A DNA stretch of 64,000 nucleotides from Escherichia phage vB_EcoM-ZQ1. Made by a program: the position numbers and the translations under genes. Every line of letters starts with the position of its first letter. Position 1 is the stretch's first letter. The notes beneath the pieces were generated by a model, which was given only the letters and a program-made list of their open reading frames with translations, ran no database searches and was not told the origin of the DNA. Of this stretch, positions 3,028-64,000 are shown piece by piece. Location: sequence record MW650886.1. The stretch is one strand, 5' to 3'.

Positions 3028-3209
3028 CGAAGGCGAGACCAGGGAATACTCCCACAAGAACTTTCCTCCCCGTGATGTTCATGACCAACAGTTCGTGAAA
3101 TTGTTCTGTCGCTGTGGTGGTTGCGACTTCACAGACGAAGGATACGCGATGCACGTATACTGCTGCAATTGCTGTGGTAAATACGTAACAGTCTATAGGA
3201 GAACCAAAC

Positions 3210-25004: not shown

Positions 25005-25565
25005 TCATGAACCCTCCGCCCAGACAAAGCCGTATTTGTTCAGTAGATCCACGGTTTCACCACGAGCGCGAGCCACGATAGATTCTACTGATTCTTCCAC
25101 CTCGAGTGGTGGGCAACCAGCCTTTTCGTACGTGTTAAGCAAGAGAGCAAGTTCTTTTACGAACTCTTCTTGTTCCTCTCCTCCAAAGAACCACATCCGC
25201 AGATCGTCGCGTTCCCCGTGCTTGTTCAGAGAAGCCATATTCACGTACACGTAATCGTTTTTCTGAACAACGTCATTTATCTCCGGCCAATGCAACCCAG
25301 TCATCGCATAATTGAAGAATTCCGAAGGGGTGACTTCATCCGACAAATAATACAAACGGAAGTCACCGCTGGGGCCATGTTTGCAAGTTCTATCCAGCAT
25401 TATTTTGTGGATGTCAACACGGTCTCGCTTCAAGACTTCCCGTTTCTTCAGTCGACCTCTCAGCCAGGCACTGCCAATACACAAAAGAACGAAAGCAGTA
25501 GCACCAGTGAGTATGTTGAAAGAATCAATAATGTTCATAAGATCCCCGAAGTGATAAAGGGGCAT
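25005..25565 (-). CDS. membrane-anchored protein (N-terminal TM helix, soluble C-terminal domain)
   Basis: GGAGGGG RBS upstream of the ATG at 25565; N-terminal NILTGATAFVLLCIGSAWL is hydrophobic. Confidence 0.45.
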   Translation of the reverse strand: MPLYHFGDLMNIIDSFNILTGATAFVLLCIGSAWLRGRLKKREVLKRDRVDIHKIMLDRTCKHGPSGDFRLYYLSDEVTPSEFFNYAMTGLHWPEINDVVQKNDYVYVNMASLNKHGERDDLRMWFFGGEEQEEFVKELALLLNTYEKAGCPPLEVEESVESIVARARGETVDLLNKYGFVWAEGS

Positions 25566-25579
25566 AAGCCCCTCCGATG

Positions 25580-26188
25580 TTATTTGCTCAGGCTGGCGAG
25601 GTAGTTGTCGGCTTCGATAGACGACGGGCTGTTGGCGGAGTAGCTCGAATCAGCGATTTCGGTTTCGCGCAGGATGGCATCGATATCGATGGTGGTCATA
25701 CCAGCGGCATAATCGATATCTTCAGGGAGCACCAGACCCAGGTCGTTCGTCTCTTTCTGAACACGAACCAGCTCGAGATTGGACTTGACTTCGTCCAGTT
25801 TGTCACCCAGCTGGATGATCGCACCGTTCAGTTTGTCGCTGCTTGCTTCGATGTCCTTCACCTGAGCCAACAGGGCTTCACCGATACGGCGGCGATGCAG
25901 AATAATCAGGGCGTCGGCGCGGGTTGGTGTGACACCACGAGCGATGGCGTCCTTCAGAACTTCTTCGCGCTTGGCGGCTTCACTCAGGTTCTGTTCTGCG
26001 GTCTTCTTCAGTTTGACGCCGTTGCGGACGTTGGTGACACGGGCTTCCTCCAGGCGACGGATTTCGTCAGACAGCTTGCGAGCAGCCAGGTTCAGGCGCT
26101 TTTCGGTGTCGGTCAGTTTATCCAGACCTGCGGTGACGTTGGCTTCAACAGTGGTGAAGATGCGTTTCAGTAAGTTTTTCAGTGACAT
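25580..26188 (-). CDS. PspA/IM30-family (phage-shock protein A / Vipp1-like) protein
   Basis: 202 aa; N-terminal amphipathic helix then long heptad-like coiled coil (LKNLLKRIFTTVEANVTAGLDKLTDTEKRL...) resembling PspA; GAGGA RBS. Confidence 0.55.
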   Translation of the reverse strand: MSLKNLLKRIFTTVEANVTAGLDKLTDTEKRLNLAARKLSDEIRRLEEARVTNVRNGVKLKKTAEQNLSEAAKREEVLKDAIARGVTPTRADALIILHRRRIGEALLAQVKDIEASSDKLNGAIIQLGDKLDEVKSNLELVRVQKETNDLGLVLPEDIDYAAGMTTIDIDAILRETEIADSSYSANSPSSIEADNYLASLSK

Positions 26189-26776: not shown

Positions 26777-26989
26777 TCACTTCCTCATCAGTGAGAGCAG
26801 ATTGACCGTAGCCGGGCGCGCATCAGGGGCGTAGAAGACGTCCTGAGAGTGCCTCTTACAGCACGGGCAATCCTTCGTGGCGATTACACAGGGAGCCTTG
26901 CTTACGGCAAATCCGGCGGCTTCGGCTTCCTTCACAGTGGTGAATGGCATGTAAGCACTTGTGCCCTGCCCTCCGCATGAACATTCCAT
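26777..26989 (-). CDS. small cysteine-rich protein
   Basis: 70 aa with CSCGG ... C ... CPCC; start overlaps the upstream micro-ORF stop (TGATG). Confidence 0.4.
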   Translation of the reverse strand: MECSCGGQGTSAYMPFTTVKEAEAAGFAVSKAPCVIATKDCPCCKRHSQDVFYAPDARPATVNLLSLMRK

Positions 26990-27105
26990 CAGCGTTTCCT
27001 CTTAAAGGGGATGACCAGGGCTATGATGAGAAGCATAGCTGTAATCATCCCACATGCTATCAGACCAAAGGCGAACGACTTCAGAACAAACTCAATCAAA
27101 TTCAT
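26989..27105 (-). CDS. micro-ORF encoding a 38-aa hydrophobic peptide (absent from the ORF track)
   Basis: hand-translated MNLIEFVLKSFAFGLIACGMITAMLLIIALVIPFKRKR; ATGA-coupled to the upstream gene stop and TGATG-coupled to the downstream start. Confidence 0.3.
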   Translation of the reverse strand: MNLIEFVLKSFAFGLIACGMITAMLLIIALVIPFKRKR

Positions 27106-28328
27106 AACTTCCTCAATTTGGCTCTGGTGACCTGAGTTTGTTTAACGCCGTTGTACTCAGTCAGTTCTTTGACACGACCACGGATGATCATATCGCCCTG
27201 CAAGAACTCTGTATCCATATAAGAGGTCTTCCAGGTAATTGTATTGCCTTCTGCTGTTTTGAAAGTAAACAGGTAGCTATCACCATATTCATTGGAGAAG
27301 AGGAAGGTGCGCTTGTCGAACCTGACTTGCACTTCCAGCATTTCACCGACTTCTCCCACCCATTTGTTCTCCGCCTTGCGGTCAGTACGAGGACGATGGA
27401 TGTAATCGTAATACTTCTTGGCACCCCAGCGGACTGTGTTGTTATCCTTGATGAGGTGATAGCCGGGTTCACACATGCGTTTCAGGCGAACATTGAACTC
27501 ATTAGATTCGGACAGCGCACTGATGAAGAGCTTCATATGGTACATTTCCGACTCGGCGTCTTCACGGTATTCGTGTGCCTTGTTTACGAAATACTCTTCA
27601 TCGGAACCTGCTTTTGGTTTCTGGTGAGACCGGACATAGCCCAGTACTTTGTCAAACAGTTCAGACTTGATATCCACGCCTGCCAGCATCACCTGGAAGC
27701 ATGCGCGCAGGTAACTGTGGGTGTCGGTGAAGCGCTCATTTTGGACGCGATATATACCCTCTGGGTCGTCCTCGTCTGGCATGAAGAACTCTTGGATTTC
27801 CAGATAGTAAGACATAATCGCGTCAAGGGACTTCTGATGAGGCACATAATGATGCATACAGGTGCTACCAATCAGCATCTGGGTATGCGTTTCCTCATTT
27901 TCAATCACATACGTGTTCTTGCGACGGATGGCTAGATTGCAATGCTGACACCAAGAGACGTTCTCTGTCTCGAAGCGACGGATGAAGTCAGGATTGATGT
28001 TGTCGGACAGGCGGTTAAGAATAACCTTTGGATATTCGTGATTGAACTGACCGATGATCTTCCAGCCACCATAAGAGATGGGGCGGTCAATGCCTTCGCC
28101 TTCGAGAGTGACAGGTTTCCACCAGTGAGTAAGGATCTCACCAGTGAAGTCGCGGGTGTGGGTTTTGAAGGGTTCACCATAAGTCACAGTCGGAAACGGA
28201 ACACCCAACCTTTCGGCAGTGCGCTCGAGCTTCTTCAGTCGCTCAACTACCAACCCTTCATTGTCGATCGGAATATTGAATGTTTTGACGTTCATTTCCA
28301 GCCTCATGATGTAGTTGTAACTCTTCAA
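27102..28328 (-). CDS. hypothetical protein (408 aa) with Cys/His cluster
   Basis: long ORF; WCQHCNLAIRR...STCMHHYV cluster; no enzyme family recognised. Confidence 0.55.
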   Translation of the reverse strand: MKSYNYIMRLEMNVKTFNIPIDNEGLVVERLKKLERTAERLGVPFPTVTYGEPFKTHTRDFTGEILTHWWKPVTLEGEGIDRPISYGGWKIIGQFNHEYPKVILNRLSDNINPDFIRRFETENVSWCQHCNLAIRRKNTYVIENEETHTQMLIGSTCMHHYVPHQKSLDAIMSYYLEIQEFFMPDEDDPEGIYRVQNERFTDTHSYLRACFQVMLAGVDIKSELFDKVLGYVRSHQKPKAGSDEEYFVNKAHEYREDAESEMYHMKLFISALSESNEFNVRLKRMCEPGYHLIKDNNTVRWGAKKYYDYIHRPRTDRKAENKWVGEVGEMLEVQVRFDKRTFLFSNEYGDSYLFTFKTAEGNTITWKTSYMDTEFLQGDMIIRGRVKELTEYNGVKQTQVTRAKLRKL

Positions 28329-28375: not shown

Positions 28376-28403
28376 AGTAAAAAGCCCAGTACTTGACTGG
28401 GCT
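28376..28403 (-). terminator. rho-independent terminator on the minus strand (8-bp stem then TTTTTACTT)
   Basis: agcccagt / actgggct stem read directly, downstream of the stop at 28422. Confidence 0.55.
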
Positions 28404-51843: not shown

Positions 51844-52638
51844 TTAACTGAAACTCTTGTATGCTGCTGCGAGCTTCTTGTCGTACTGGTTCTTGGCATA
51901 CGCCGGACCATTATAGCGCCGTGCAAATTCAGACCAGTTCTTGTCCTTCAGAGCCTTCCAGAGCTTGGCGTCAGCCTTGATGAACTTCACGAATGCCATC
52001 AAATGAGCACGTTCTCCTGTCAGGAAGTCGTTGAACATCTCCTTGGCGTTGGCATATCCACAGACCTGGCAGTTGAATCCCATGATCTGGAAGAGACCGT
52101 AAGAGGCGCTCTCGTACGCACAATCCTCATCGATGTTGATGGCCGCATGAAGTCGATCCAACTCCGCGTCGCCTCCCGTGTACCCGCCTGCGGAAGGACT
52201 GACCAACGTCGGGTACATATGTCCCATGGCATTCGCCCGAGCCTGTCCGAACTTCGCCATCAGCTTCTTATACATGATGTGACGCTCAAATAATGTCTTG
52301 ATCTTACCTGACTTGGTGAAGCCCGTGCCGCGCGACTCAACCTGATTCACCGCCTTGACAGAGGCAAGGTCAACACCCAGATCATTAGCAGCATCAATCA
52401 GGTCTGACTCAGTTAAATGATCCTGATGGGCGTCTCCGGCGTTGCGAATAGCATAGGAGGTCTTTGGACCCACGATACCATCAATGACAAGCCCCGCACC
52501 CGCCTGAACAGTCTTGACGGCGTTCTCTGTTGCCTTACCAAAGATGCCGTCAGCGACGAGGGTGAAGCCGATTTTGTTGAGGCTATCCTGAAGTGCCTTC
52601 ACTTCAGTACCACGGTTGCCAAATTTTAGAATGGCCAT
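51844..52638 (-). CDS. endolysin: N-terminal peptidoglycan-binding repeats plus C-terminal muramidase-like domain
   Basis: ATG at 52638 with GGAGG RBS; two PG_binding_1-like repeats (GTEVKALQDSLNKIGF ... FGKATENAVKTVQ); C-terminal catalytic-like domain (YGLFQIMGFN). Confidence 0.65.
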   Translation of the reverse strand: MAILKFGNRGTEVKALQDSLNKIGFTLVADGIFGKATENAVKTVQAGAGLVIDGIVGPKTSYAIRNAGDAHQDHLTESDLIDAANDLGVDLASVKAVNQVESRGTGFTKSGKIKTLFERHIMYKKLMAKFGQARANAMGHMYPTLVSPSAGGYTGGDAELDRLHAAINIDEDCAYESASYGLFQIMGFNCQVCGYANAKEMFNDFLTGERAHLMAFVKFIKADAKLWKALKDKNWSEFARRYNGPAYAKNQYDKKLAAAYKSFS

Positions 52639-56236: not shown

Positions 56237-59200
56237 TCAGATCTTAATCTGCATGTTGCCACCCAGGGACTGCTCGTACTCGCTGTATGCGCCTTCCCCG
56301 TAGTCTCGTGCCCACTGGTCAGACTGCTGGGCGCTATCCAGAGTCATCAGGTTTGGTTCAGTCGGGTTGTAACCCTTGGACTTCGCATCCCGGTACAGAG
56401 TCTGCAGGTACTGGTTGGCGCGGTCAATCTGAGCTTTGAACTCGCGATATGCCCCTTCAGTTGTGTTGCGGCGGAAGGTGATATCCCAGTCCACGTTCAG
56501 AGTCTGACCATCACGGCTTGCATAGATCTGCCAATCCAGGTCGCGGCCTTTTGGTGCGTTGTCGCGGATGGAGTCGGCGTATGCCGCAAGGTCGTCCTTC
56601 GGATTGTGCGACGTGCTTTTCAGAAGTAGTGCATGACCCATACCACCGTTTGGCTCAAGAGACCATTTTCCTGTTTCTCTTCCCAGGCGTTCTATGTTGT
56701 TGAGTTGGTTTATCGACAATTCAGAAGAGTCAAATAATACCACATCACGTTTTTTGGGGGTTCTCACATAAGGGGTGAGATCAATGTCGATCATCCGGTT
56801 TATAAATTCTACCACTTCAGCTTGTTTCTTTGGCAATGTGGTATTGATATCCGGCTTGTTTGCCACTTTCTCTAGGCGTTTATTTTCTGCGCTTATCATG
56901 GACAGCATAATTTGTGTAACTTTGCCGTCAGACAAGTTGTAATCATTCCAAATCACTTCACCTTTATCCGTGATGGTTATATCGTTCAAGAACACCTGGT
57001 TTGGGTTGTATGACTGACTTTTCAACTGTTGGAGGTTTCTGGAAAGATATACCATTTTTGATGAAATCTCATCAATCACACTCTGGACCATATCTTTGTT
57101 TAAAGGAAGTTCATATGTCTTCGGATTGTTCAGGGTACGCCCTTTCTGAGAGACAATTGGGGTGAATGCAACTTTACCTTTGTCGTAGTAATAGGTCACG
57201 TTGGTTATCATAGAAGTACCGGCGTATTTTCCCGTTTCGGGGAAATTGACATCCCACCGAATGGACATGCCGTTGACAGTCTCACCAAACACCATGGCGT
57301 TGCTTGGTATCTTCAGGGTTCCAGAGTTGACCAGATCAGCGCCTTGGGCATTCAGGTCGATAGAACCATAGATAGCCCCGGTAATACGATCTTTCAACAT
57401 CAGGGTCTTGTCGCCCTTCTCTGGGATGATTTCCAGCGGGTGCTTGCCACGCGGAGGTTCTTTGATGAGTTCCAGTAGAGCAGTTTTCCCTGGTTTCACA
57501 CGATTCAGGACAGCGTCGGACACTGTCAGAGTCCAGTTTGCGGTTTCCACATAACCCCAGCCCCGAGAACGGCGAATGGCTTTGATAGGATATGGAGCGC
57601 TTGTTGGCACTGCGCTAATTTCCCATTTGCCAGTGTACTGGGTCTTGGCAACCTCAAAGATGGACGCAATTACTGCATTGGCGACGTCACGGGCGCTACC
57701 TTTGGCCACGTTCTCCTCTTCAGCAATTTCGCTGAAAACTGAGTATTGAACGAAACCAGCGAGGACGTTTGTGAAGTTGACAACGATAACCAACCCGCCT
57801 GCTGTCGTGTAACGACCAGCGCCCACACGACGGATGTTTTCACCAGGAAGAATAGAAGTGTCCAACCCAACGTTGGTATCAATGATACCCAGAACACGAG
57901 CGATGAAACCACTGTCACGTAATTGATCAACACTGGTTGCACCCTCGGTCGAATCCGATGCGGATTTAGACACTTTGTTCAACTTGATAGAGACAAGGGT
58001 TTCCCCGTTGACACCGATGATATCCCATTCAGTACCCTGCTCGTTCGAGGTGCGGGCAATCTTGCGCTTTGAATTGATGGCACCTTCGTAACGCCCGTTC
58101 TTGACCACAACAGAGGCAGTAGCAGCATCAGTCGCACTTGCTGCATTTGAAAAGTCTGGGTCAGAAATACTGATGTCGACGTCACCGTTTTGAGAACGCA
58201 TGCGAACACCGTTTTTGAATCGTTCAACGTTTACTTCTCGAGCACCAAGTCGTTTGGCATCAATAACAGCAGTTCCAGAACCGATAATGTTGGCTGGGTT
58301 ATTTCTGTCTGAACTGTTTTGAGAACCTTTCCAAAATTTTGTAGACGCCATGGTGAAATCATTCAGGATATTGATAGGGACTTGCGGTAATTTCAACTGA
58401 CGAGCAATGAAATCAGCACTTTGCCCACGCACAGGTTTCTCATTCATGTATGCGCCAACATACACGCCCGGCTCATTGTAGTGGGGAGCGATATTTGCCG
58501 TGTTCGTGCGGCCTCTCTCCTTACCAGCCCATAACAACATGGGCTGATCCCCGTTTGAAGTTAATTTCCATCCGTTGCCATTGCTGGTGTCATTGCTGGT
58601 GTCATTGCTGGTGTCAACGTCCACCACCAGAATTATCTGAGCACCTTTCTTGAAAGTGTACTGATCGTACATACCTTTCTTCTGTTTGGTCATGGACGCA
58701 CCGACCAAGTCTTGGTTGGTGAAGCCGCGCTTCATATTCCAAGATACCTCAGTCCCGTCTGGATATTTGTCAAAATCATAACCATAGAATGTGGCTACTT
58801 CTTTCGAACCGCTTATCAGACGGACGTAATTTCCACGAATCGGGTCTCGCCCGCTCTTCAACTCCAGACCAGTGTCCGAGCTGTTGTACCACTCGCGGTT
58901 GACTTCTATTTCAGAAGAACCAGCCCCAACTCCCACATCCGGAGTATTGTTCTGAACCGGAACGTCACCGACTTTGTCTGGATCATCCCAGGTGATACCC
59001 TGCATCTTCGGACCGTCGAATACCTGAGCCGGATCTTTACCCTTACGAACTAGCCACACATAACCACGGTCAGGAACAGGCGCGTAGGTCAGGTCCATGA
59101 CGTTCAGTTTCTGCTTCAGGCCGGACTGGCGGATGATCTTAGGAATCAGGGTCATACCGCGATCCAGCGCTTTCTTAGAGAAGTTGACAGCAAAGCCATC

Positions 59201-59527
59201 GATGGTCTTACCCAGAGGGGTCGCCATGAATTGTTTGGTCGCTTCGATCATGGAAGCGATAACGCGCATTGGGTTCTTGAAGCGAGCGATGGCGTCAGGA
59301 TAGACGGAGCCGCGCTTCTGGCCGATGAAAACCTGACGAACGCTCTTGCCCAGCCCCTGAGGAGTATAGAACTGAATGCGGTATTCCTTATCATCTTCGT
59401 CGACGAAGGTAAAGAACACATCGCCTGCGTTCTTCTTACCCATGGTCAGCTCATACGGAGCGGAGTTGAACGCTTCGTCTAACTGATCTCTTTCCTGCAT
59501 GAACTGGAGGAAACTTAGCTTTGACAT
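56237..59527 (-). CDS. large hypothetical protein (1096 aa), possibly virion-associated
   Basis: long uninterrupted ORF with AGGAGAT RBS; contains in-frame (TSND)n repeat; no catalytic motif recognised. Confidence 0.6.
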   Translation of the reverse strand: MSKLSFLQFMQERDQLDEAFNSAPYELTMGKKNAGDVFFTFVDEDDKEYRIQFYTPQGLGKSVRQVFIGQKRGSVYPDAIARFKNPMRVIASMIEATKQFMATPLGKTIDGFAVNFSKKALDRGMTLIPKIIRQSGLKQKLNVMDLTYAPVPDRGYVWLVRKGKDPAQVFDGPKMQGITWDDPDKVGDVPVQNNTPDVGVGAGSSEIEVNREWYNSSDTGLELKSGRDPIRGNYVRLISGSKEVATFYGYDFDKYPDGTEVSWNMKRGFTNQDLVGASMTKQKKGMYDQYTFKKGAQIILVVDVDTSNDTSNDTSNGNGWKLTSNGDQPMLLWAGKERGRTNTANIAPHYNEPGVYVGAYMNEKPVRGQSADFIARQLKLPQVPINILNDFTMASTKFWKGSQNSSDRNNPANIIGSGTAVIDAKRLGAREVNVERFKNGVRMRSQNGDVDISISDPDFSNAASATDAATASVVVKNGRYEGAINSKRKIARTSNEQGTEWDIIGVNGETLVSIKLNKVSKSASDSTEGATSVDQLRDSGFIARVLGIIDTNVGLDTSILPGENIRRVGAGRYTTAGGLVIVVNFTNVLAGFVQYSVFSEIAEEENVAKGSARDVANAVIASIFEVAKTQYTGKWEISAVPTSAPYPIKAIRRSRGWGYVETANWTLTVSDAVLNRVKPGKTALLELIKEPPRGKHPLEIIPEKGDKTLMLKDRITGAIYGSIDLNAQGADLVNSGTLKIPSNAMVFGETVNGMSIRWDVNFPETGKYAGTSMITNVTYYYDKGKVAFTPIVSQKGRTLNNPKTYELPLNKDMVQSVIDEISSKMVYLSRNLQQLKSQSYNPNQVFLNDITITDKGEVIWNDYNLSDGKVTQIMLSMISAENKRLEKVANKPDINTTLPKKQAEVVEFINRMIDIDLTPYVRTPKKRDVVLFDSSELSINQLNNIERLGRETGKWSLEPNGGMGHALLLKSTSHNPKDDLAAYADSIRDNAPKGRDLDWQIYASRDGQTLNVDWDITFRRNTTEGAYREFKAQIDRANQYLQTLYRDAKSKGYNPTEPNLMTLDSAQQSDQWARDYGEGAYSEYEQSLGGNMQIKI
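58579..58614. repeat. 12-bp tandem repeat, three perfect copies (cattgctggtgt), in frame inside the 1096-aa ORF, encoding (TSND)3
   Basis: copies at 58579-58590, 58591-58602, 58603-58614 with partial copies flanking. Confidence 0.8.
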
Positions 59528-59602
59528 TTTATATCTCCTGATTGAATTAATGGCGGTTTCTTCTAATTAGCGAAACCAAAAGGGAGCGTCAGCCCCCTTA
59601 TC

Positions 59603-59959
59603 TTATTTTTGAACTTGGGCTACAGACATCGCCCAGAGCGGGAGGGTGTGGGGGTCCAGGGCTTCCAGTAGATATTCGACGCGCTCTGACATGATACCTT
59701 CAGGGAAGTTTACTTCTTCTGGTTCGTTGTTGGCCGTCCAACCCAATGTCAGTCCTTCAGCGTGATGGATGATATAAACGAAGTCGTCTGGTTCGTAGTC
59801 CTTTTCCATCAGGGCGAAGAAATCTTCCATTTCTTCGTCGGAGAAGTAGTAGATGCGAGGTACAGAGCCGTCAGCAAAGTGCTCAGCACCCTGGAAGGCA
59901 AACATGTCATCGGCGGTGAAGTTCTTGAGTTGTGTCATGATATAGTTCCTGCTTTTCAA
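59603..59959 (-). CDS. hypothetical acidic protein
   Basis: 118-aa ORF; alternative start at 59938. Confidence 0.4.
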   Translation of the reverse strand: MKSRNYIMTQLKNFTADDMFAFQGAEHFADGSVPRIYYFSDEEMEDFFALMEKDYEPDDFVYIIHHAEGLTLGWTANNEPEEVNFPEGIMSERVEYLLEALDPHTLPLWAMSVAQVQK

Positions 59960-60014
59960 GTTGGTGTCGTACTGCTTATGGAATGAAGTATAGGAAAGGA
60001 TATTGAAGAAGTAA

Positions 60015-60033
60015 AGGGGCGAAAGCCCCTTTT
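60015..60033 (-). terminator. hairpin terminator (aggggc-GAAA-gcccct), GNRA-type loop, T-rich on the plus side
   Basis: read directly, just downstream of the stop at 60045. Confidence 0.5.
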
Positions 60034-60044
60034 ATTGAATTATT

Positions 60045-60683
60045 TTACGGCGTCGGATTCACAACCGGAATGTGGGATCGAATACCTGCGATGATGTCCT
60101 TCAGCCGAGGATTCCATCCACCCACCAAACGGGGGAGAGCGATAGCGCCAGGCTGGACCAAAATGATGTCGCTGCCTGTGATATTGTGCTGAGGGAACTG
60201 AGCAAGGTACTGCTCCATGGCGACACCCTCATCAATCAGAACAGGACCGACATCAGATGACGCGTAGGTTGCACCCAGACCGTCAACGCCCCATGCCAAG
60301 ATACCCCAGTCAGGGATGTTGGCTTCAGATGTGATGGTGAATCCAAACACGGTGTTCAGCGAAGTAAAGGAATAGACATCGTGGGTGATGTCATACACCA
60401 GATACCCCTTGGCCAGCATATCGGCAAAGATCGCGTCCGTATCGCCAACAGCCGGAGTCGGCACAGTAAACAACAGCTCGCCATCAGGAGGAGCAGGATA
60501 CGTGCCGAGGGCATAGAGGCACCATGCATCAATGCACTTCTTAATGAACGCCTCTGGCGCGACATAATCAGCAAGGCGAACCGTACCTGAGTACTCTGAT
60601 ACGATAATGCCTTCCTTCGCACCCTGTAGAGCAATGAAGACCAAGATATGTTCATATCCGGCCTGAGATGGAGTGATGTTCAT
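60045..60683 (-). CDS. hypothetical protein
   Basis: start set at ATG 60683 (MNITPSQ...), TGATG-coupled to the upstream gene stop; ORF-track start 60779 overlaps the upstream CDS. Confidence 0.4.
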   Translation of the reverse strand: MNITPSQAGYEHILVFIALQGAKEGIIVSEYSGTVRLADYVAPEAFIKKCIDAWCLYALGTYPAPPDGELLFTVPTPAVGDTDAIFADMLAKGYLVYDITHDVYSFTSLNTVFGFTITSEANIPDWGILAWGVDGLGATYASSDVGPVLIDEGVAMEQYLAQFPQHNITGSDIILVQPGAIALPRLVGGWNPRLKDIIAGIRSHIPVVNPTP

Positions 60684-61297
60684 TATCTTGTCCTCTTCAG
60701 TTTCTCTATTGTGTGCTTGTTCATGGCGATCACCTGAGGATCTACCTCGGAGATGGTCCGGCCTTCGAAAGACACACATTTCTGAAGATATTTAGCTTTC
60801 TTCACGACGTCGGCAGCATAAGCGTTCGATGCAGGATTACGGGCGAAGCCAGCATTGTAAGAGGAGAGGGATTTGCGGATATTCTGATTGTGATAGGTCA
60901 GCCAGAACTGCATCTCATCGAGGGCGGCTTGCGCGGCATATTCTTGGTCGGTCAGCAACTTTATGGCGACATTGGCATAGCACTTGCGATTCTTACAACC
61001 TTCGCGATCACCAACTGTCTTCACCTTGTTCTGAAAGGCTCCCATGTTGGCCGCCTTGAGACCGTATCGCATTGACACTACATCTTCACCAGCGCGGCTC
61101 TCTCGCCAAGATATGGCGGCCAGAGTGTAGCCAAGATCTTGTGTCTTGCCTACGTGATAGGCGGTTGCCATCGTATTAAGTTGTTGCTCGGAGAAATTAT
61201 AAACACATTGACTTGTATTTTGGGAAGCGTGCACATTCCCGCTGGCAATGGTAAAGGTCACGGACAAGGCCATGGCCTTCAACGTTGTCATCGTCAT
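60683..61297 (-). CDS. soluble lytic transglycosylase (SLT-domain) with N-terminal signal peptide
   Basis: N-terminal signal-like MTMTTLKAMALSVTFTIASGNVHAS; SLT motifs ISWRESRAGED (E-S) and SSYNAGFA (Y-N-x-G). Confidence 0.55.
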   Translation of the reverse strand: MTMTTLKAMALSVTFTIASGNVHASQNTSQCVYNFSEQQLNTMATAYHVGKTQDLGYTLAAISWRESRAGEDVVSMRYGLKAANMGAFQNKVKTVGDREGCKNRKCYANVAIKLLTDQEYAAQAALDEMQFWLTYHNQNIRKSLSSYNAGFARNPASNAYAADVVKKAKYLQKCVSFEGRTISEVDPQVIAMNKHTIEKLKRTR

Positions 61298-61349
61298 GAT
61301 GGCGTTCCTTATGTTTGTCGACTTGCAGCTCGATTGAGCCTCCTGACAG

Positions 61350-61393: not shown

Positions 61394-61678
61394 TCATTCG
61401 TAGATGAGGTGGTAGGATTCCTCGATACACTCCAGCCAGCCATAGACGAACTGTAGAGGGTCATCCCATGCCGTCTTGGTCGCGACGGTAAAGTTGCCGT
61501 CCAGGATCTGCATATCTTGGTACTTGTTGAAAGCGAGTACAGCATCAACCACAATCAGGCCGCCCTGCTCAAGATAACGATTCGGAGTGACGGCCACTTG
61601 GTAACGAGGATTCCTGTGATTCCATATCTCCACAGCAATGTCACAGGAATCCTGAATTTCATCTTTGGTTTCTGACAT
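61394..61678 (-). CDS. hypothetical protein
   Basis: 94-aa ORF. Confidence 0.4.
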   Translation of the reverse strand: MSETKDEIQDSCDIAVEIWNHRNPRYQVAVTPNRYLEQGGLIVVDAVLAFNKYQDMQILDGNFTVATKTAWDDPLQFVYGWLECIEESYHLIYE

Positions 61679-61988
61679 ACGTTTGTCTCAGGTGTTCAGT
61701 AAAGGATTTACCCAGCTTGCGGAATAGTTTAATACGACCAATGACTTTGACGTAAACATCTCCGTGGCAGGGGCGTGGCTTACACCAGCACCCCAATACC
61801 TTCCCGTCAAGCTCAAGGAGTTCATCCTCGGTGATATCCCCTTCAATCAGGCGCACATACAGGTCTTCTTCAAACAGTTCGATACAGACGCCTCGTCCAT
61901 GGTCTTTGACCTCAAATGGGTTCCCCCATTTACCAGGCCGACCAATGTAGACGTCATATGGCTCCTTCTTGAAGTGGACGACTTTCAT
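61659..61988 (-). CDS. conserved hypothetical protein (GRPGKWGNPF motif)
   Basis: 109-aa ORF; ATGA-coupled to the upstream micro-ORF. Confidence 0.4.
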   Translation of the reverse strand: MKVVHFKKEPYDVYIGRPGKWGNPFEVKDHGRGVCIELFEEDLYVRLIEGDITEDELLELDGKVLGCWCKPRPCHGDVYVKVIGRIKLFRKLGKSFTEHLRQTYVRNQR

Positions 61989-62149
61989 TTCAGGATTTGA
62001 CCTGCAAGTAGATAACAGAACCAGACAGAGAACCCGAGATACCCCAGTGCTTTCAGGTAGTTTTTCCTTTCGACTTCACGAGAAAATGCAATGATGTCAA
62101 TGATGCATGCAAAGACCAGGATTGCGAGTTTAATTTGTTCGTAGTTCAT
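61985..62149 (-). CDS. micro-ORF encoding a 54-aa two-TM membrane peptide (absent from the ORF track)
   Basis: hand-translated MNYEQIKLAILVFACIIDIIAFSREVERKNYLKALGYLGFSVWFCYLLAGQILK; starts 2 nt after the gp46-like stop, ends in ATGA overlap. Confidence 0.3.
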   Translation of the reverse strand: MNYEQIKLAILVFACIIDIIAFSREVERKNYLKALGYLGFSVWFCYLLAGQILK

Positions 62150-62151
62150 GA

Positions 62152-64000
62152 TCAATCCTTCTTGATAACTTCAGTCAGGCCGTTTCGCAGGCCGTAGCGA
62201 ATGTTGTGTTGGAAGTATTCCTGGAACTCCTGTTCGCGCTGGCTAATAACAAACAGGTTGTTCCCGCCGAACTTATGCTTCAACATCTCAACCGATTCCT
62301 GCACCCCGCGCTCGCTCATGTTCTCAAGGATCTCGTCCAGCACGAACAGGTTACATTGTACAGACGCCTTGAGGTTAGCCACATCGCGCAGAGCTAATGT
62401 CACAGCCAGGTTCAGACGACTGCGCTGGCCAGTAGACAGGGAGAAGATACTCTGTCCTTTGCGGCCTGCTGCGCTCATGGTGATCTCAAAGGTATCGTCA
62501 ACAACGATGTCCAGGAACATGTTGAGGGCTTCAAGATACTCGTTGATCTTGCTATTGAGGAATGGCAGATACAGGGCGATGATACGCGCCTTGGTCTGGT
62601 CATCTTTCAAGAAGAACAGCAGGTGCTGTAAGTCCTGGAGTTCTTGGTCGGCATCCTCGCGGCGCTGGTATAGATCCTCCAGTTCACCTTCCAACGCAGC
62701 GATGGAGTTCTCCAGGTCGGTGGTAGGTGTTGGCTTTACAGCCAGTTTACGCTCCAGATCGGCAATAGACGCCACGAGAGGAGCACGACGGGCTTTCAGC
62801 TCGGCGATCTTATCATCGACGGCTTTAATCCCGCTAACGGCATTCTCTCGCGTCTGTTGCAGCGACGCAGTGATGTCTTCAAAACGAACGTTCATTGCCT
62901 TACGGATGTCAAGGATCTTCTGTTGGCATTCACGGTTCAGCGAATTACACTCAATCGTGGCGACATCATGAAAACCTTGAATATCACGGCGCAGCTGCTT
63001 GATGTTGTCAACGATTTCGTCGGCCTGCTTGCGCATTGCATCAAGTTCAGCATCCAACACAGCAATGTCAGCAACCAGCTTGTCGTCCTGGGCTTTGTGG
63101 TCATCGATCAACACAGTGACTTCGGCGGTGACTTTATCCAGCTGGTCCAGCTTCGCCTGTAGATCCTGAATCCGAGGATTGTACTCGCTTTCAATGCGCG
63201 CCTTGGTATCGTCGGACACCAGTTGGGTACATGTTGGGCAAGTCCCCATGTCGTGGAAGCGCTTGATGGCCGACTGATGCCCCTCCATTTCAGTCTGGAA
63301 CTTGATACGGAAGTTCTCACCCTGCTGGCGGCGCTGAATAGCAGCGTTCAGGGTGTCCAGGTTTGTGTTGCGCTTGGTGAGCAGGGTGTTCTTGCGTTCG
63401 GCCACTGTAAAGGCGCGGTCACGCAAGACCTGAAGTTCATGCTCCGCAGTAGACACTTCGATGCGCTCATAATCATCGGCCTTTTCCTGAGCGGCATCCT
63501 TCACCGCCTGGATCTTGGCATCAAAGTCTTTCTTGACAGCCTCGATCTCTACCATGGATTCATCATGCAGGCGGCTTTCCACCGTCTTCATTTCCTGGGT
63601 GGCTTCAAACTCCACAGCCGTGAGGCGGGTGCGCTCCTCATTCTGCGCGGCAATGTCAGCATCCAGGGAATTCAGGGCTTCCTGTTGCTGTACAAGGATA
63701 TCGGCCGACTGCTGTTGGATCAGGGCGTTGGATTGCTCGATCTGCTGAAGCTGCGTCTTCTTGTTGGTGTGGTCAACAACCTTCAGTGCGCATTCGTTAG
63801 ATATAGAGTCCAGAGTTGCATTTGTCCTTTTGATGGCGGCCTTGACATCTTCGTTCATCAGGCTGAAGAAGCCCAAGTCCCAGATAGTCTCCACCATGGC
63901 GCGGCGGTCGGCTGTGTACATCTCCGTGAACGGAATGAACTTCTCTTTACCCAACACCAGAGAGTTCTCAAACATCTTCTGGTCTACACCGATGAGGTTC
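62152..64000 (-). CDS. recombination/repair ATPase (T4 gp46-like, Rad50/SbcC family), 5'-partial (N-terminus beyond the window end)
   Basis: long coiled coil, ABC signature LSTGQRSRL and D-loop LFVLDE at the C-terminus; no Walker A within the window, so the N-terminus lies upstream. Confidence 0.75.
   Translation of the reverse strand, partial: NLIGVDQKMFENSLVLGKEKFIPFTEMYTADRRAMVETIWDLGFFSLMNEDVKAAIKRTNATLDSISNECALKVVDHTNKKTQLQQIEQSNALIQQQSADILVQQQEALNSLDADIAAQNEERTRLTAVEFEATQEMKTVESRLHDESMVEIEAVKKDFDAKIQAVKDAAQEKADDYERIEVSTAEHELQVLRDRAFTVAERKNTLLTKRNTNLDTLNAAIQRRQQGENFRIKFQTEMEGHQSAIKRFHDMGTCPTCTQLVSDDTKARIESEYNPRIQDLQAKLDQLDKVTAEVTVLIDDHKAQDDKLVADIAVLDAELDAMRKQADEIVDNIKQLRRDIQGFHDVATIECNSLNRECQQKILDIRKAMNVRFEDITASLQQTRENAVSGIKAVDDKIAELKARRAPLVASIADLERKLAVKPTPTTDLENSIAALEGELEDLYQRREDADQELQDLQHLLFFLKDDQTKARIIALYLPFLNSKINEYLEALNMFLDIVVDDTFEITMSAAGRKGQSIFSLSTGQRSRLNLAVTLALRDVANLKASVQCNLFVLDEILENMSERGVQESVEMLKHKFGGNNLFVISQREQEFQEYFQHNIRYGLRNGLTEVIKKD

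Follow-up and report, generated by a model that had tools for sequence, protein, structure and literature searches.

Two very short genes, here called orfA and orfB, sit at the junctions between longer genes in a 64,000-nucleotide (nt) stretch of DNA from Escherichia phage vB_EcoM-ZQ1 (MW650886.1); this whole stretch is referred to below as the window. A preliminary description had pointed to two short open reading frames (ORFs) encoding strongly hydrophobic peptides of 54 and 38 amino acids (aa), and translation confirms both, at 61985-62149 (orfA) and at 26989-27105 (orfB). Their strand, which that description left unstated, is minus, as is that of all their partner genes. Nucleotide matches around both sites come from more than 200 records of Ackermannviridae (ViI-like) phages, the closest of which (96-98% identity) are Escherichia phages A221, AV101, YX22 and PC3 and Enterobacter phage fGh-Ecl02; judged by these matches, the window is that of an Agtrevirus-like phage of the subfamily Aglimvirinae, family Ackermannviridae. 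Two records labelled "Enterococcus phage Efm 3-10" (OR844944.1 and OR844942.1) also carry orfA/orfB sequences of the Ackermannviridae type (84-94% aa identity) and probably represent a contaminated or mislabelled assembly; one "Pseudomonas" record is likewise among the record counts.

Gene Content of the Two Loci

The orfA gene encodes MNYEQIKLAILVFACIIDIIAFSREVERKNYLKALGYLGFSVWFCYLLAGQILK, a peptide with a grand average of hydropathy (GRAVY) of 0.74 and two hydrophobic segments, which an AlphaFold2 model (predicted local distance difference test score, pLDDT, of 87.7) folds as a hairpin of two helices, residues 3-27 and 31-53. Its N-terminal end is acidic, the loop (SREVERKNYLK) is basic, and the chain ends ...LLAGQILK, four residues past helix 2; this distribution of charges predicts an N-out/loop-in/C-out two-transmembrane (TM) hairpin with barely any mass outside the membrane. 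Two features are conserved: an Asp within helix 1 and, in helix 2, the motif FCYLLA. Upstream lies the gene for a gp46/SbcC-like recombination endonuclease subunit (62152-64000, minus strand, where it leaves the window), named Gp46 in A221, AV101, Vi01 and phiSboM-AG3 (AG3), and downstream a DUF4326/NrdA.1-like gene (61659-61988, minus strand; Pfam PF14216, E=1.6e-23), the order being rnh - gp55 - gp47 - gp46 - orfA - DUF4326 (PF14216) - 94 aa and onward. Between gp46 and orfA, the coding strand holds no promoter- or terminator-like signals above chance, and the AG3 table of 40 terminators lists none between Torf127 and Torf105, which flank the run of genes that includes orfA.

The orfB gene encodes MNLIEFVLKSFAFGLIACGMITAMLLIIALVIPFKRKR (GRAVY 1.40), a 38-aa single-pass membrane peptide with a C-terminal KRKR and a predicted N-out/C-in topology. 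It is wedged between a 408-aa gene (27102-28328, minus strand; PHROG 2319, KVP40.0369-like) and a 70-aa Cys-rich gene (26777-26989, minus strand; PHROG 4789). The predicted transcription unit, in the order 408 aa - orfB - 70-aa Cys-rich - 113 aa - PspA/IM30-like, is bounded by two hairpins: a terminator-like one upstream of the 408-aa gene (28384-28402, minus strand), the same as the AG3 Torf057 stem-loop, sets its 5' limit, and a weak one, AGGGGC-TTAT-GCCCCT (25557-25575, minus strand), at the site of AG3 Torf049 (AG3 Table S2), sets its 3' limit right after the stop codon of the PspA/IM30-family gene (25580-26188, minus strand; Pfam PF04012, E=4.9e-11, 43.1 bits against a cut-off of 33.9). 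No internal promoters or terminators beyond chance were found on the coding strand around orfB. Beyond the unit lie genes for a single-TM protein and then for a DNA ligase.

The preliminary description held that stop and start codons overlap at both ends of each ORF. This is true of orfB, whose start overlaps the stop of the 408-aa gene (ATGA) and whose stop overlaps the start of the Cys-rich gene (TGATG), and of the 3' end of orfA, whose stop shares ATGA with the ATG of the DUF4326 gene. It does not hold for the 5' end of orfA: as read from the sequence, the gp46 stop codon TGA (62152-62154, minus strand) is followed by 2 nt (TC) and then by the ATG (TGATCATG). An overlap with the gp46 stop would arise only from an alternative TTG start two codons above the ATG (62153-62155, minus strand). 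Both genes have Shine-Dalgarno motifs of their own inside the upstream gene: GAAGGA within the final gp46 codons for orfA (62156-62161, minus strand; also read from the sequence) and, for orfB, GAGGA within the end of the 408-aa gene (27110-27114, minus strand), kept in all relatives examined. Dense packing with overlapping genes is the norm in both operons, and coupling alone is therefore not special.

Both Genes Belong to Annotated Families

The two ORFs had been described as missing from the ORF track, which they are, by the length threshold alone (both are shorter than 60 aa), and as unannotated, which they are not. Annotations of both genes are found among the records of A221, AV101, phiSboM-AG3, ViI, SilasIsHot and others; related genomes have listed them since 2010, phiSboM-AG3 as "hypothetical membrane protein" gp106 (orfA) and gp049 (orfB). 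The gp106 product (orf00117, YP_003358593) is 96% identical to orfA over 54 aa, lies at the same position with the same junctions and carries two annotated TM domains (Phobius/TMHMM); there is no material difference, and it is the same gene. Likewise, phiSboM-AG3 gp049 (orf00054, YP_003358536) and ViI Vi01_050c, each with one annotated TM domain, are 84-92% identical to orfB over 38 aa, share its overlaps and do not differ from it materially. Both peptides also match PHROG profiles over their full lengths: orfA matches PHROG 34593 (E=1.3e-40, residues 1-54 on profile positions 1-54 of 54) and orfB PHROG 6569 (E=1.5e-26, residues 1-38 on 1-38 of 38), both labelled "unknown function". Synteny agrees: orfA lies between the gp46 stop and the DUF4326/NrdA.1-like start, as in the gp106 family, metagenome contigs included, and orfB overlaps the 3' end of the PHROG 2319 gene, as in the gp049 family. 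A search of a large protein collection with orfA returned only five clusters, all of at least 83% identity and none named; no relatives are thus seen outside this phage group.

A function, too, has been suggested before. The 2011 genome paper on phiSboM-AG3, in which no holin or lysin was detected, counted the product of gene 117 (54 aa) as one of five small TM proteins that "could" serve as holins (PMC3121705). Both micro-ORFs are thus known already, as members of established families, and the holin proposal has been published.

Public records are themselves uneven. The record of 3HA11 omits a 54-aa hairpin ORF (locus L125, 692-856; the T1b allele described below), and that of Erwinia phage Bue1 (locus L124) omits, within a 488-nt "gap", both a 105-aa ORF with a signal-peptide-like N-terminus (2007-2324) and a 37-aa orfB-like TM ORF (2321-2434).

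Selection Acts on the Reading Frames

Are these frames translated, or are they open by chance, or conserved as DNA for the sake of an RNA or another regulatory element? Short frames do stay open in random sequence: shuffled slot DNA remains open with a probability of 0.037 for orfA and 0.13 for orfB (0.04-0.13 per slot). What they encode is more unusual, since the window, read in all six frames, has 229 ATG-initiated ORFs of 30-59 aa, and by peak hydrophobicity orfB comes first among them and orfA third.

For orfB, tblastn with a threshold of 80% aa identity finds 215 phage records, and the sampled loci show no variation in its length, its overlap at the start, its Shine-Dalgarno motif or its KRK(R/K) end. 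Variable columns number 9/4/20 at the three codon positions, and the ratio of nonsynonymous to synonymous differences (pN/pS, Nei-Gojobori) is 0.17 in its own frame but 1.8 and 2.9 in the two others. Diverged homologs of 38 and 46 aa occur at Taipeivirus-type loci (z=12 and 5.2), and the 37-aa ORF of Bue1 (z=4.4) is probably homologous as well. A 38-aa TM ORF of Serratia phage Kevin was considered and not accepted as an orfB homolog: it occupies the same position and has no detectable similarity (z about 0).

For orfA, the window allele (T1) shows 10 variable columns among five unique DNAs, and T1 is conserved between genera even at synonymous sites, as an element conserved at the DNA level would be. 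This conservation reflects recent exchange, since the changes in a more distant T1 copy fall mostly at third positions: the metagenomic copy, with 83% aa identity and the same synteny, differs at 19 nt (6/3/10 by codon position), with conservative replacements and a pN/pS of 0.31 in frame as opposed to 2.0 and 2.2 in the other two frames. A diverged subfamily, T1b (3HA11, Ds3CZ), is 41-48% identical to orfA (z=21.7), keeps the 54 codons with no indels, and retains the helix-1 Asp and the FCYLLA motif. Moreover, each diverged or unrelated allele at the orfA position is again an open frame of 53-57 codons for a two-TM peptide.

Frame-specific selection in both ORFs, a length fixed at 41-48% identity and conserved Shine-Dalgarno motifs all argue against an untranslated origin, which we consider barely credible. 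An RNA element in particular is rejected for the lack of any Rfam match in the whole window and of excess folding energy over shuffles in either ORF (z=+0.76 and -0.20). By contrast, because frame and length are kept, purifying selection acts in their own frames only, they have their own ribosome-binding sites and they abut same-strand operon genes, orfA and orfB are very probably real genes, translated into very small inner-membrane proteins whose families are already listed in related genomes. The preliminary description had regarded them as real small membrane-protein genes, with frame conservation in related phages as a check; that conservation is found for both.

Alternative Hairpins at the gp46/DUF4326 Junction

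The two genes differ in how they are distributed. A survey anchored on the conserved flanking genes, which took the interval from the gp46 stop to the DUF4326 start (61985-62151 in the window; loci L005-L034, L125 and L126), shows that the slot held by orfA is polymorphic. It contains T1 (54 aa) in about 25 records; T1b (54 aa), always after a 102-aa basic protein, in 12; T2 (57 aa) in 40; T3 (53 aa) in 9; and an allele designated T4 (53 aa) in phages of the Serratia IME250 type. In ViI and many Kuttervirus phages, the 102-aa basic protein (PHROG 4651, present in 137 records overall) is there alone; Taipeivirus-type loci (L020-L022) are empty, with a 2-nt gap; and in LIMEstone1 and four further loci (L029, L032-L034), deletions reach into the DUF4326 gene. 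In Dickeya phage LIMEstone1 (L006/L023, ~3036-3100), gp46 is followed by the opening codons of the 102-aa gene (ATGGGTAGACTGATTCGTGTTTCAAAG), which lead into a 5'-truncated DUF4326 gene, annotated from residue ~38 (72 aa); the truncations in the four other loci are similar.

All small occupants are two-TM hairpins with a short basic loop, for which charges predict the same N-out/loop-in/C-out topology, and all end in an overlap with the DUF4326 start. Their similarity to T1 is weak for T2 (z=4.2), marginal for T3 (z=2.0) and absent for allele T4, and we do not claim one family for all of them. The alleles have nonetheless travelled: the T1 island is 98-100% identical in nucleotide sequence between AG3 (Agtrevirus) and SilasIsHot (Kuttervirus), in which the flanks are about 85% identical, and Kuttervirus phages and Agtrevirus MK-13 carry copies of T3 that are 100% identical. 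Near-identity across genera points to a cassette exchanged by recombination in the conserved flanks, and from its distribution we infer that the orfA cassette is dispensable.

Mosaicism is strong along the same operon: past the 94-aa gene, at about 59000-61300, Agtrevirus and Kuttervirus are 95-100% identical (loci L002 and L007 compared), as against 50-85% in the gp46 region.

Modular shuffling and hyperplastic regions are known from T4-type genomes (PMC2839356, PMC4122927), and the slot polymorphism is a specific instance of this: here, too, small genes are replaced, inserted or deleted between core genes of close relatives. It differs in that the exchange occurs within an operon, where the breakpoints coincide with two start codons, that of the cassette and that of the gene after it, and in that no promoter-stem-loop (PeSL) motifs are found at the slot. 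Could the junction be more than that, a dedicated exchange site at which interchangeable hairpins (T1, T1b, T2, T3 and T4) act as specificity determinants in phage-phage or phage-defence conflicts? Such a site would explain diverged and unrelated alleles, patchy presence in close relatives and near-unchanged transfer between genera; we regard it as a speculative and, on balance, somewhat unlikely elaboration.

Is orfA the Missing Holin?

Class II holins and pinholins, such as S21-68 of phage 21, are small proteins with two TM helices and a charged cytoplasmic C-terminal tail. If orfA were one of these, it would make timed holes in the inner membrane, releasing or activating the endolysin, and would be the missing holin of ViI-like phages. 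It resembles them in its small size and its two TM helices; no holin has been identified in the family, whose lysis genes are scattered and not clustered; the AG3 paper listed gene 117 among its five candidates (PMC3121705); and the T3 allele, at the same slot position, is named "holin" in phage Maynard and in RefSeq, a label that PHROG 35473 also bears. That label, however, is a prediction only, carried on from the Maynard annotation into RefSeq and PHROG 35473; the Maynard genome announcement does not mention it and gives no basis for it. Maynard gp106 shares with orfA the slot, the two-TM hairpin, the short basic loop and the DUF4326 overlap (it is 53 aa long) but has no significant sequence similarity to it, and only this unrelated T3 allele matches a PHROG labelled holin; Pfam and NCBIfam hold no holin family match for orfA.

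Unlike class II holins, orfA has no charged hydrophilic C-terminal tail, QILK following straight after helix 2, and no dual-start motif that adds charge; its predicted orientation, with the loop inside and both ends outside, is the opposite of theirs; and it lies outside a lysis cassette. The endolysin homolog (51850-52638) is 9.3 kb away and has no TM neighbours. orfA belongs instead to the rnh-gp55-gp47-gp46 operon of T4-type early/middle genes, with no terminator in between, and the TATAAATA late motif, of which the window has only two copies, both far from both ORFs, is absent near orfA and orfB. In relatives, orfA is dispensable: among lytic phages, the slot has no TM ORF in ViI, is empty at the Taipeivirus-type loci and holds a deletion remnant in LIMEstone1. 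A holin function of orfA is, in our view, quite improbable, and we rate as equally improbable the narrower reading of the slot in which its alleles together are the holins missing from the family.

The gene at 60683-61297 (minus strand), some 700 nt downstream of orfA, encodes a 204-aa protein whose N-terminus is hydrophobic and signal-like. This protein belongs to PHROG 600, is named Vs.1, RegB or hypothetical in relatives, and has a marginal match to the SLT lytic-transglycosylase family (PF01464, 20.2 bits against a cut-off of 21.3); it is possibly a secreted muralytic enzyme.

The orfB Unit and the PspA-Like Protein

In the PspB/PspC-PspA and LiaI-LiaH systems, membrane proteins are paired with a PspA-type protein, and orfB might similarly be a membrane partner or anchor that recruits the phage PspA/IM30 (ESCRT-III-like) protein, preserving membrane integrity and proton-motive force. 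The two genes share one predicted, hairpin-bounded transcription unit, in the window as in AG3; both are family-wide; another single-TM protein comes after the PspA-like gene; and in Miltonvirus Kevin and Nezavisimistyvirus Bue1, the PspA-like gene is immediately preceded by a TM ORF of 37-38 aa. Against this, the Kevin ORF is a positional analogue of orfB only, the cytoplasmic part of orfB would amount to about five residues (KRKR), a Pfam search at E values up to 10 gives no PspB, PspC or LiaI match, and orfB is coupled most tightly to the 408-aa and Cys-rich genes and not to the PspA-like one. Furthermore, no TM gene adjoins the PspA-like gene in the T4-like phages that carry one (Maroon, AS-sw), and we reject the partnership as a general rule. 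An anchoring role for orfB appears unlikely.

PspA/IM30 homologs are found across the Ackermannviridae and in many T4-like Straboviridae ("e.6"), mostly annotated as hypothetical. For the single-TM protein that comes after (186 aa), the mechanical start ATG 25565 falls in the loop of the terminator-like hairpin; the true start is probably ATG 25538 (MNIIDSF...), as in relatives.

The junction just downstream of orfB varies. In several Kuttervirus phages (L092, L099-L101; records Se-B, pertopsoe, Mansal, AR2819, Guerrero and STP55), orfB is followed directly by an HNH/homing endonuclease gene and not by the Cys-rich gene; mobile endonuclease genes thus seem to insert at the 3' junction of orfB. 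More remote homologs of the 408-aa gene were found by tblastn on a phage collection, the related-locus search having given close relatives only. They include homologs at 22-24% identity in Vibrio phages K356 and K469 (157 kb; L115, L116), in which the next gene encodes a protein of 129-132 aa that begins with a TM segment and has Cys in its C-terminal part. This protein could be a fused counterpart of orfB and the Cys-rich protein, but its similarity is not significant, and we do not accept it as an orfB homolog.

Proposed Roles

What might two such peptides do? By analogy with T4, in which these replication and recombination genes are of the early/middle class, both would be made along with them through coupled translation and would insert into the host inner membrane. 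orfA would then be a dispensable accessory factor that binds a membrane protein or oligomerises, acting within the bilayer because it has almost no mass outside it. A role in conflict, for example in superinfection exclusion or counter-defence, is what we tentatively propose for orfA; it fits better than a lysis holin because of the presence/absence pattern, the unrelated alleles at one site and the transfer between genera.

Phage T4 Imm is a small early inner-membrane protein that confers superinfection immunity. Like Imm, orfA is a small accessory TM protein among T4-type early/middle replication genes, and a conflict-type role would, by this analogy, fit its allelic turnover; unlike Imm, it is shorter still, and it has no sequence similarity to that protein (Pfam searched to E 10 gives two chance-level matches only).

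A different use of the same properties would be host takeover: one or both peptides could be toxins that, like type I toxins or small regulatory membrane proteins, depolarise or perturb the inner membrane early in infection or block one of the host's membrane complexes. Their size and hydrophobicity are of the right class, both genes lie in operons of T4-type early/middle genes, and peptides with almost no extramembrane mass would have to work within the bilayer. They have no homology to toxin families in Pfam, NCBIfam or PADLOC, however, and the phage's own PspA-like membrane protector argues against deliberate depolarisation; a toxin, which the data do not separate from a conflict role, is to our minds an improbable reading.

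For orfB, our preferred account is a conserved housekeeping role at the membrane, possibly together with the PspA-like protein. That the two genes form a membrane-maintenance module is suggested by the family-wide presence of orfB and the shared predicted unit, and we hold it doubtful.

Several points weigh against this account of the two peptides. No meaningful match to characterised proteins came up when orfA, orfB and the alternative alleles were scanned against Pfam, NCBIfam and PADLOC, and we infer function from population pattern and context. The timing class of both operons is borrowed from T4, and the topology calls use the positive-inside rule only. The selection test for orfA draws on 19 differences, since T1 varies so little between genera that there are few substitutions to count. 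That the PspA-like genes of T4-like Straboviridae have no TM gene beside them weakens the link between orfB and PspA. Lastly, no Ribo-seq, RNA-seq or infected-cell proteomics was found in the literature for Ackermannviridae; in virion mass spectrometry (PMC10892097), non-structural membrane peptides are not expected to show up.

Implications

An ORF cut-off of 60 aa hides real genes, and public records, as those of 3HA11 and Bue1 illustrate, are inconsistent in the same respect. A family-wide 38-aa peptide encoded in one unit with a phage PspA/ESCRT-III-like gene is a modest lead. The other modest lead is the recombination-prone orfA slot: with its alternative hairpins, it is a small and testable setting in which to study accessory functions of phages, and it bears on lysis timing in ViI-like phages. 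If the junction is indeed an exchange site for conflict determinants, each allele would exclude, or protect against, different competitors or membrane-acting abortive-infection systems. Ackermannviridae are common in biocontrol and therapy cocktails, and superinfection exclusion by such peptides would matter for cocktail design.

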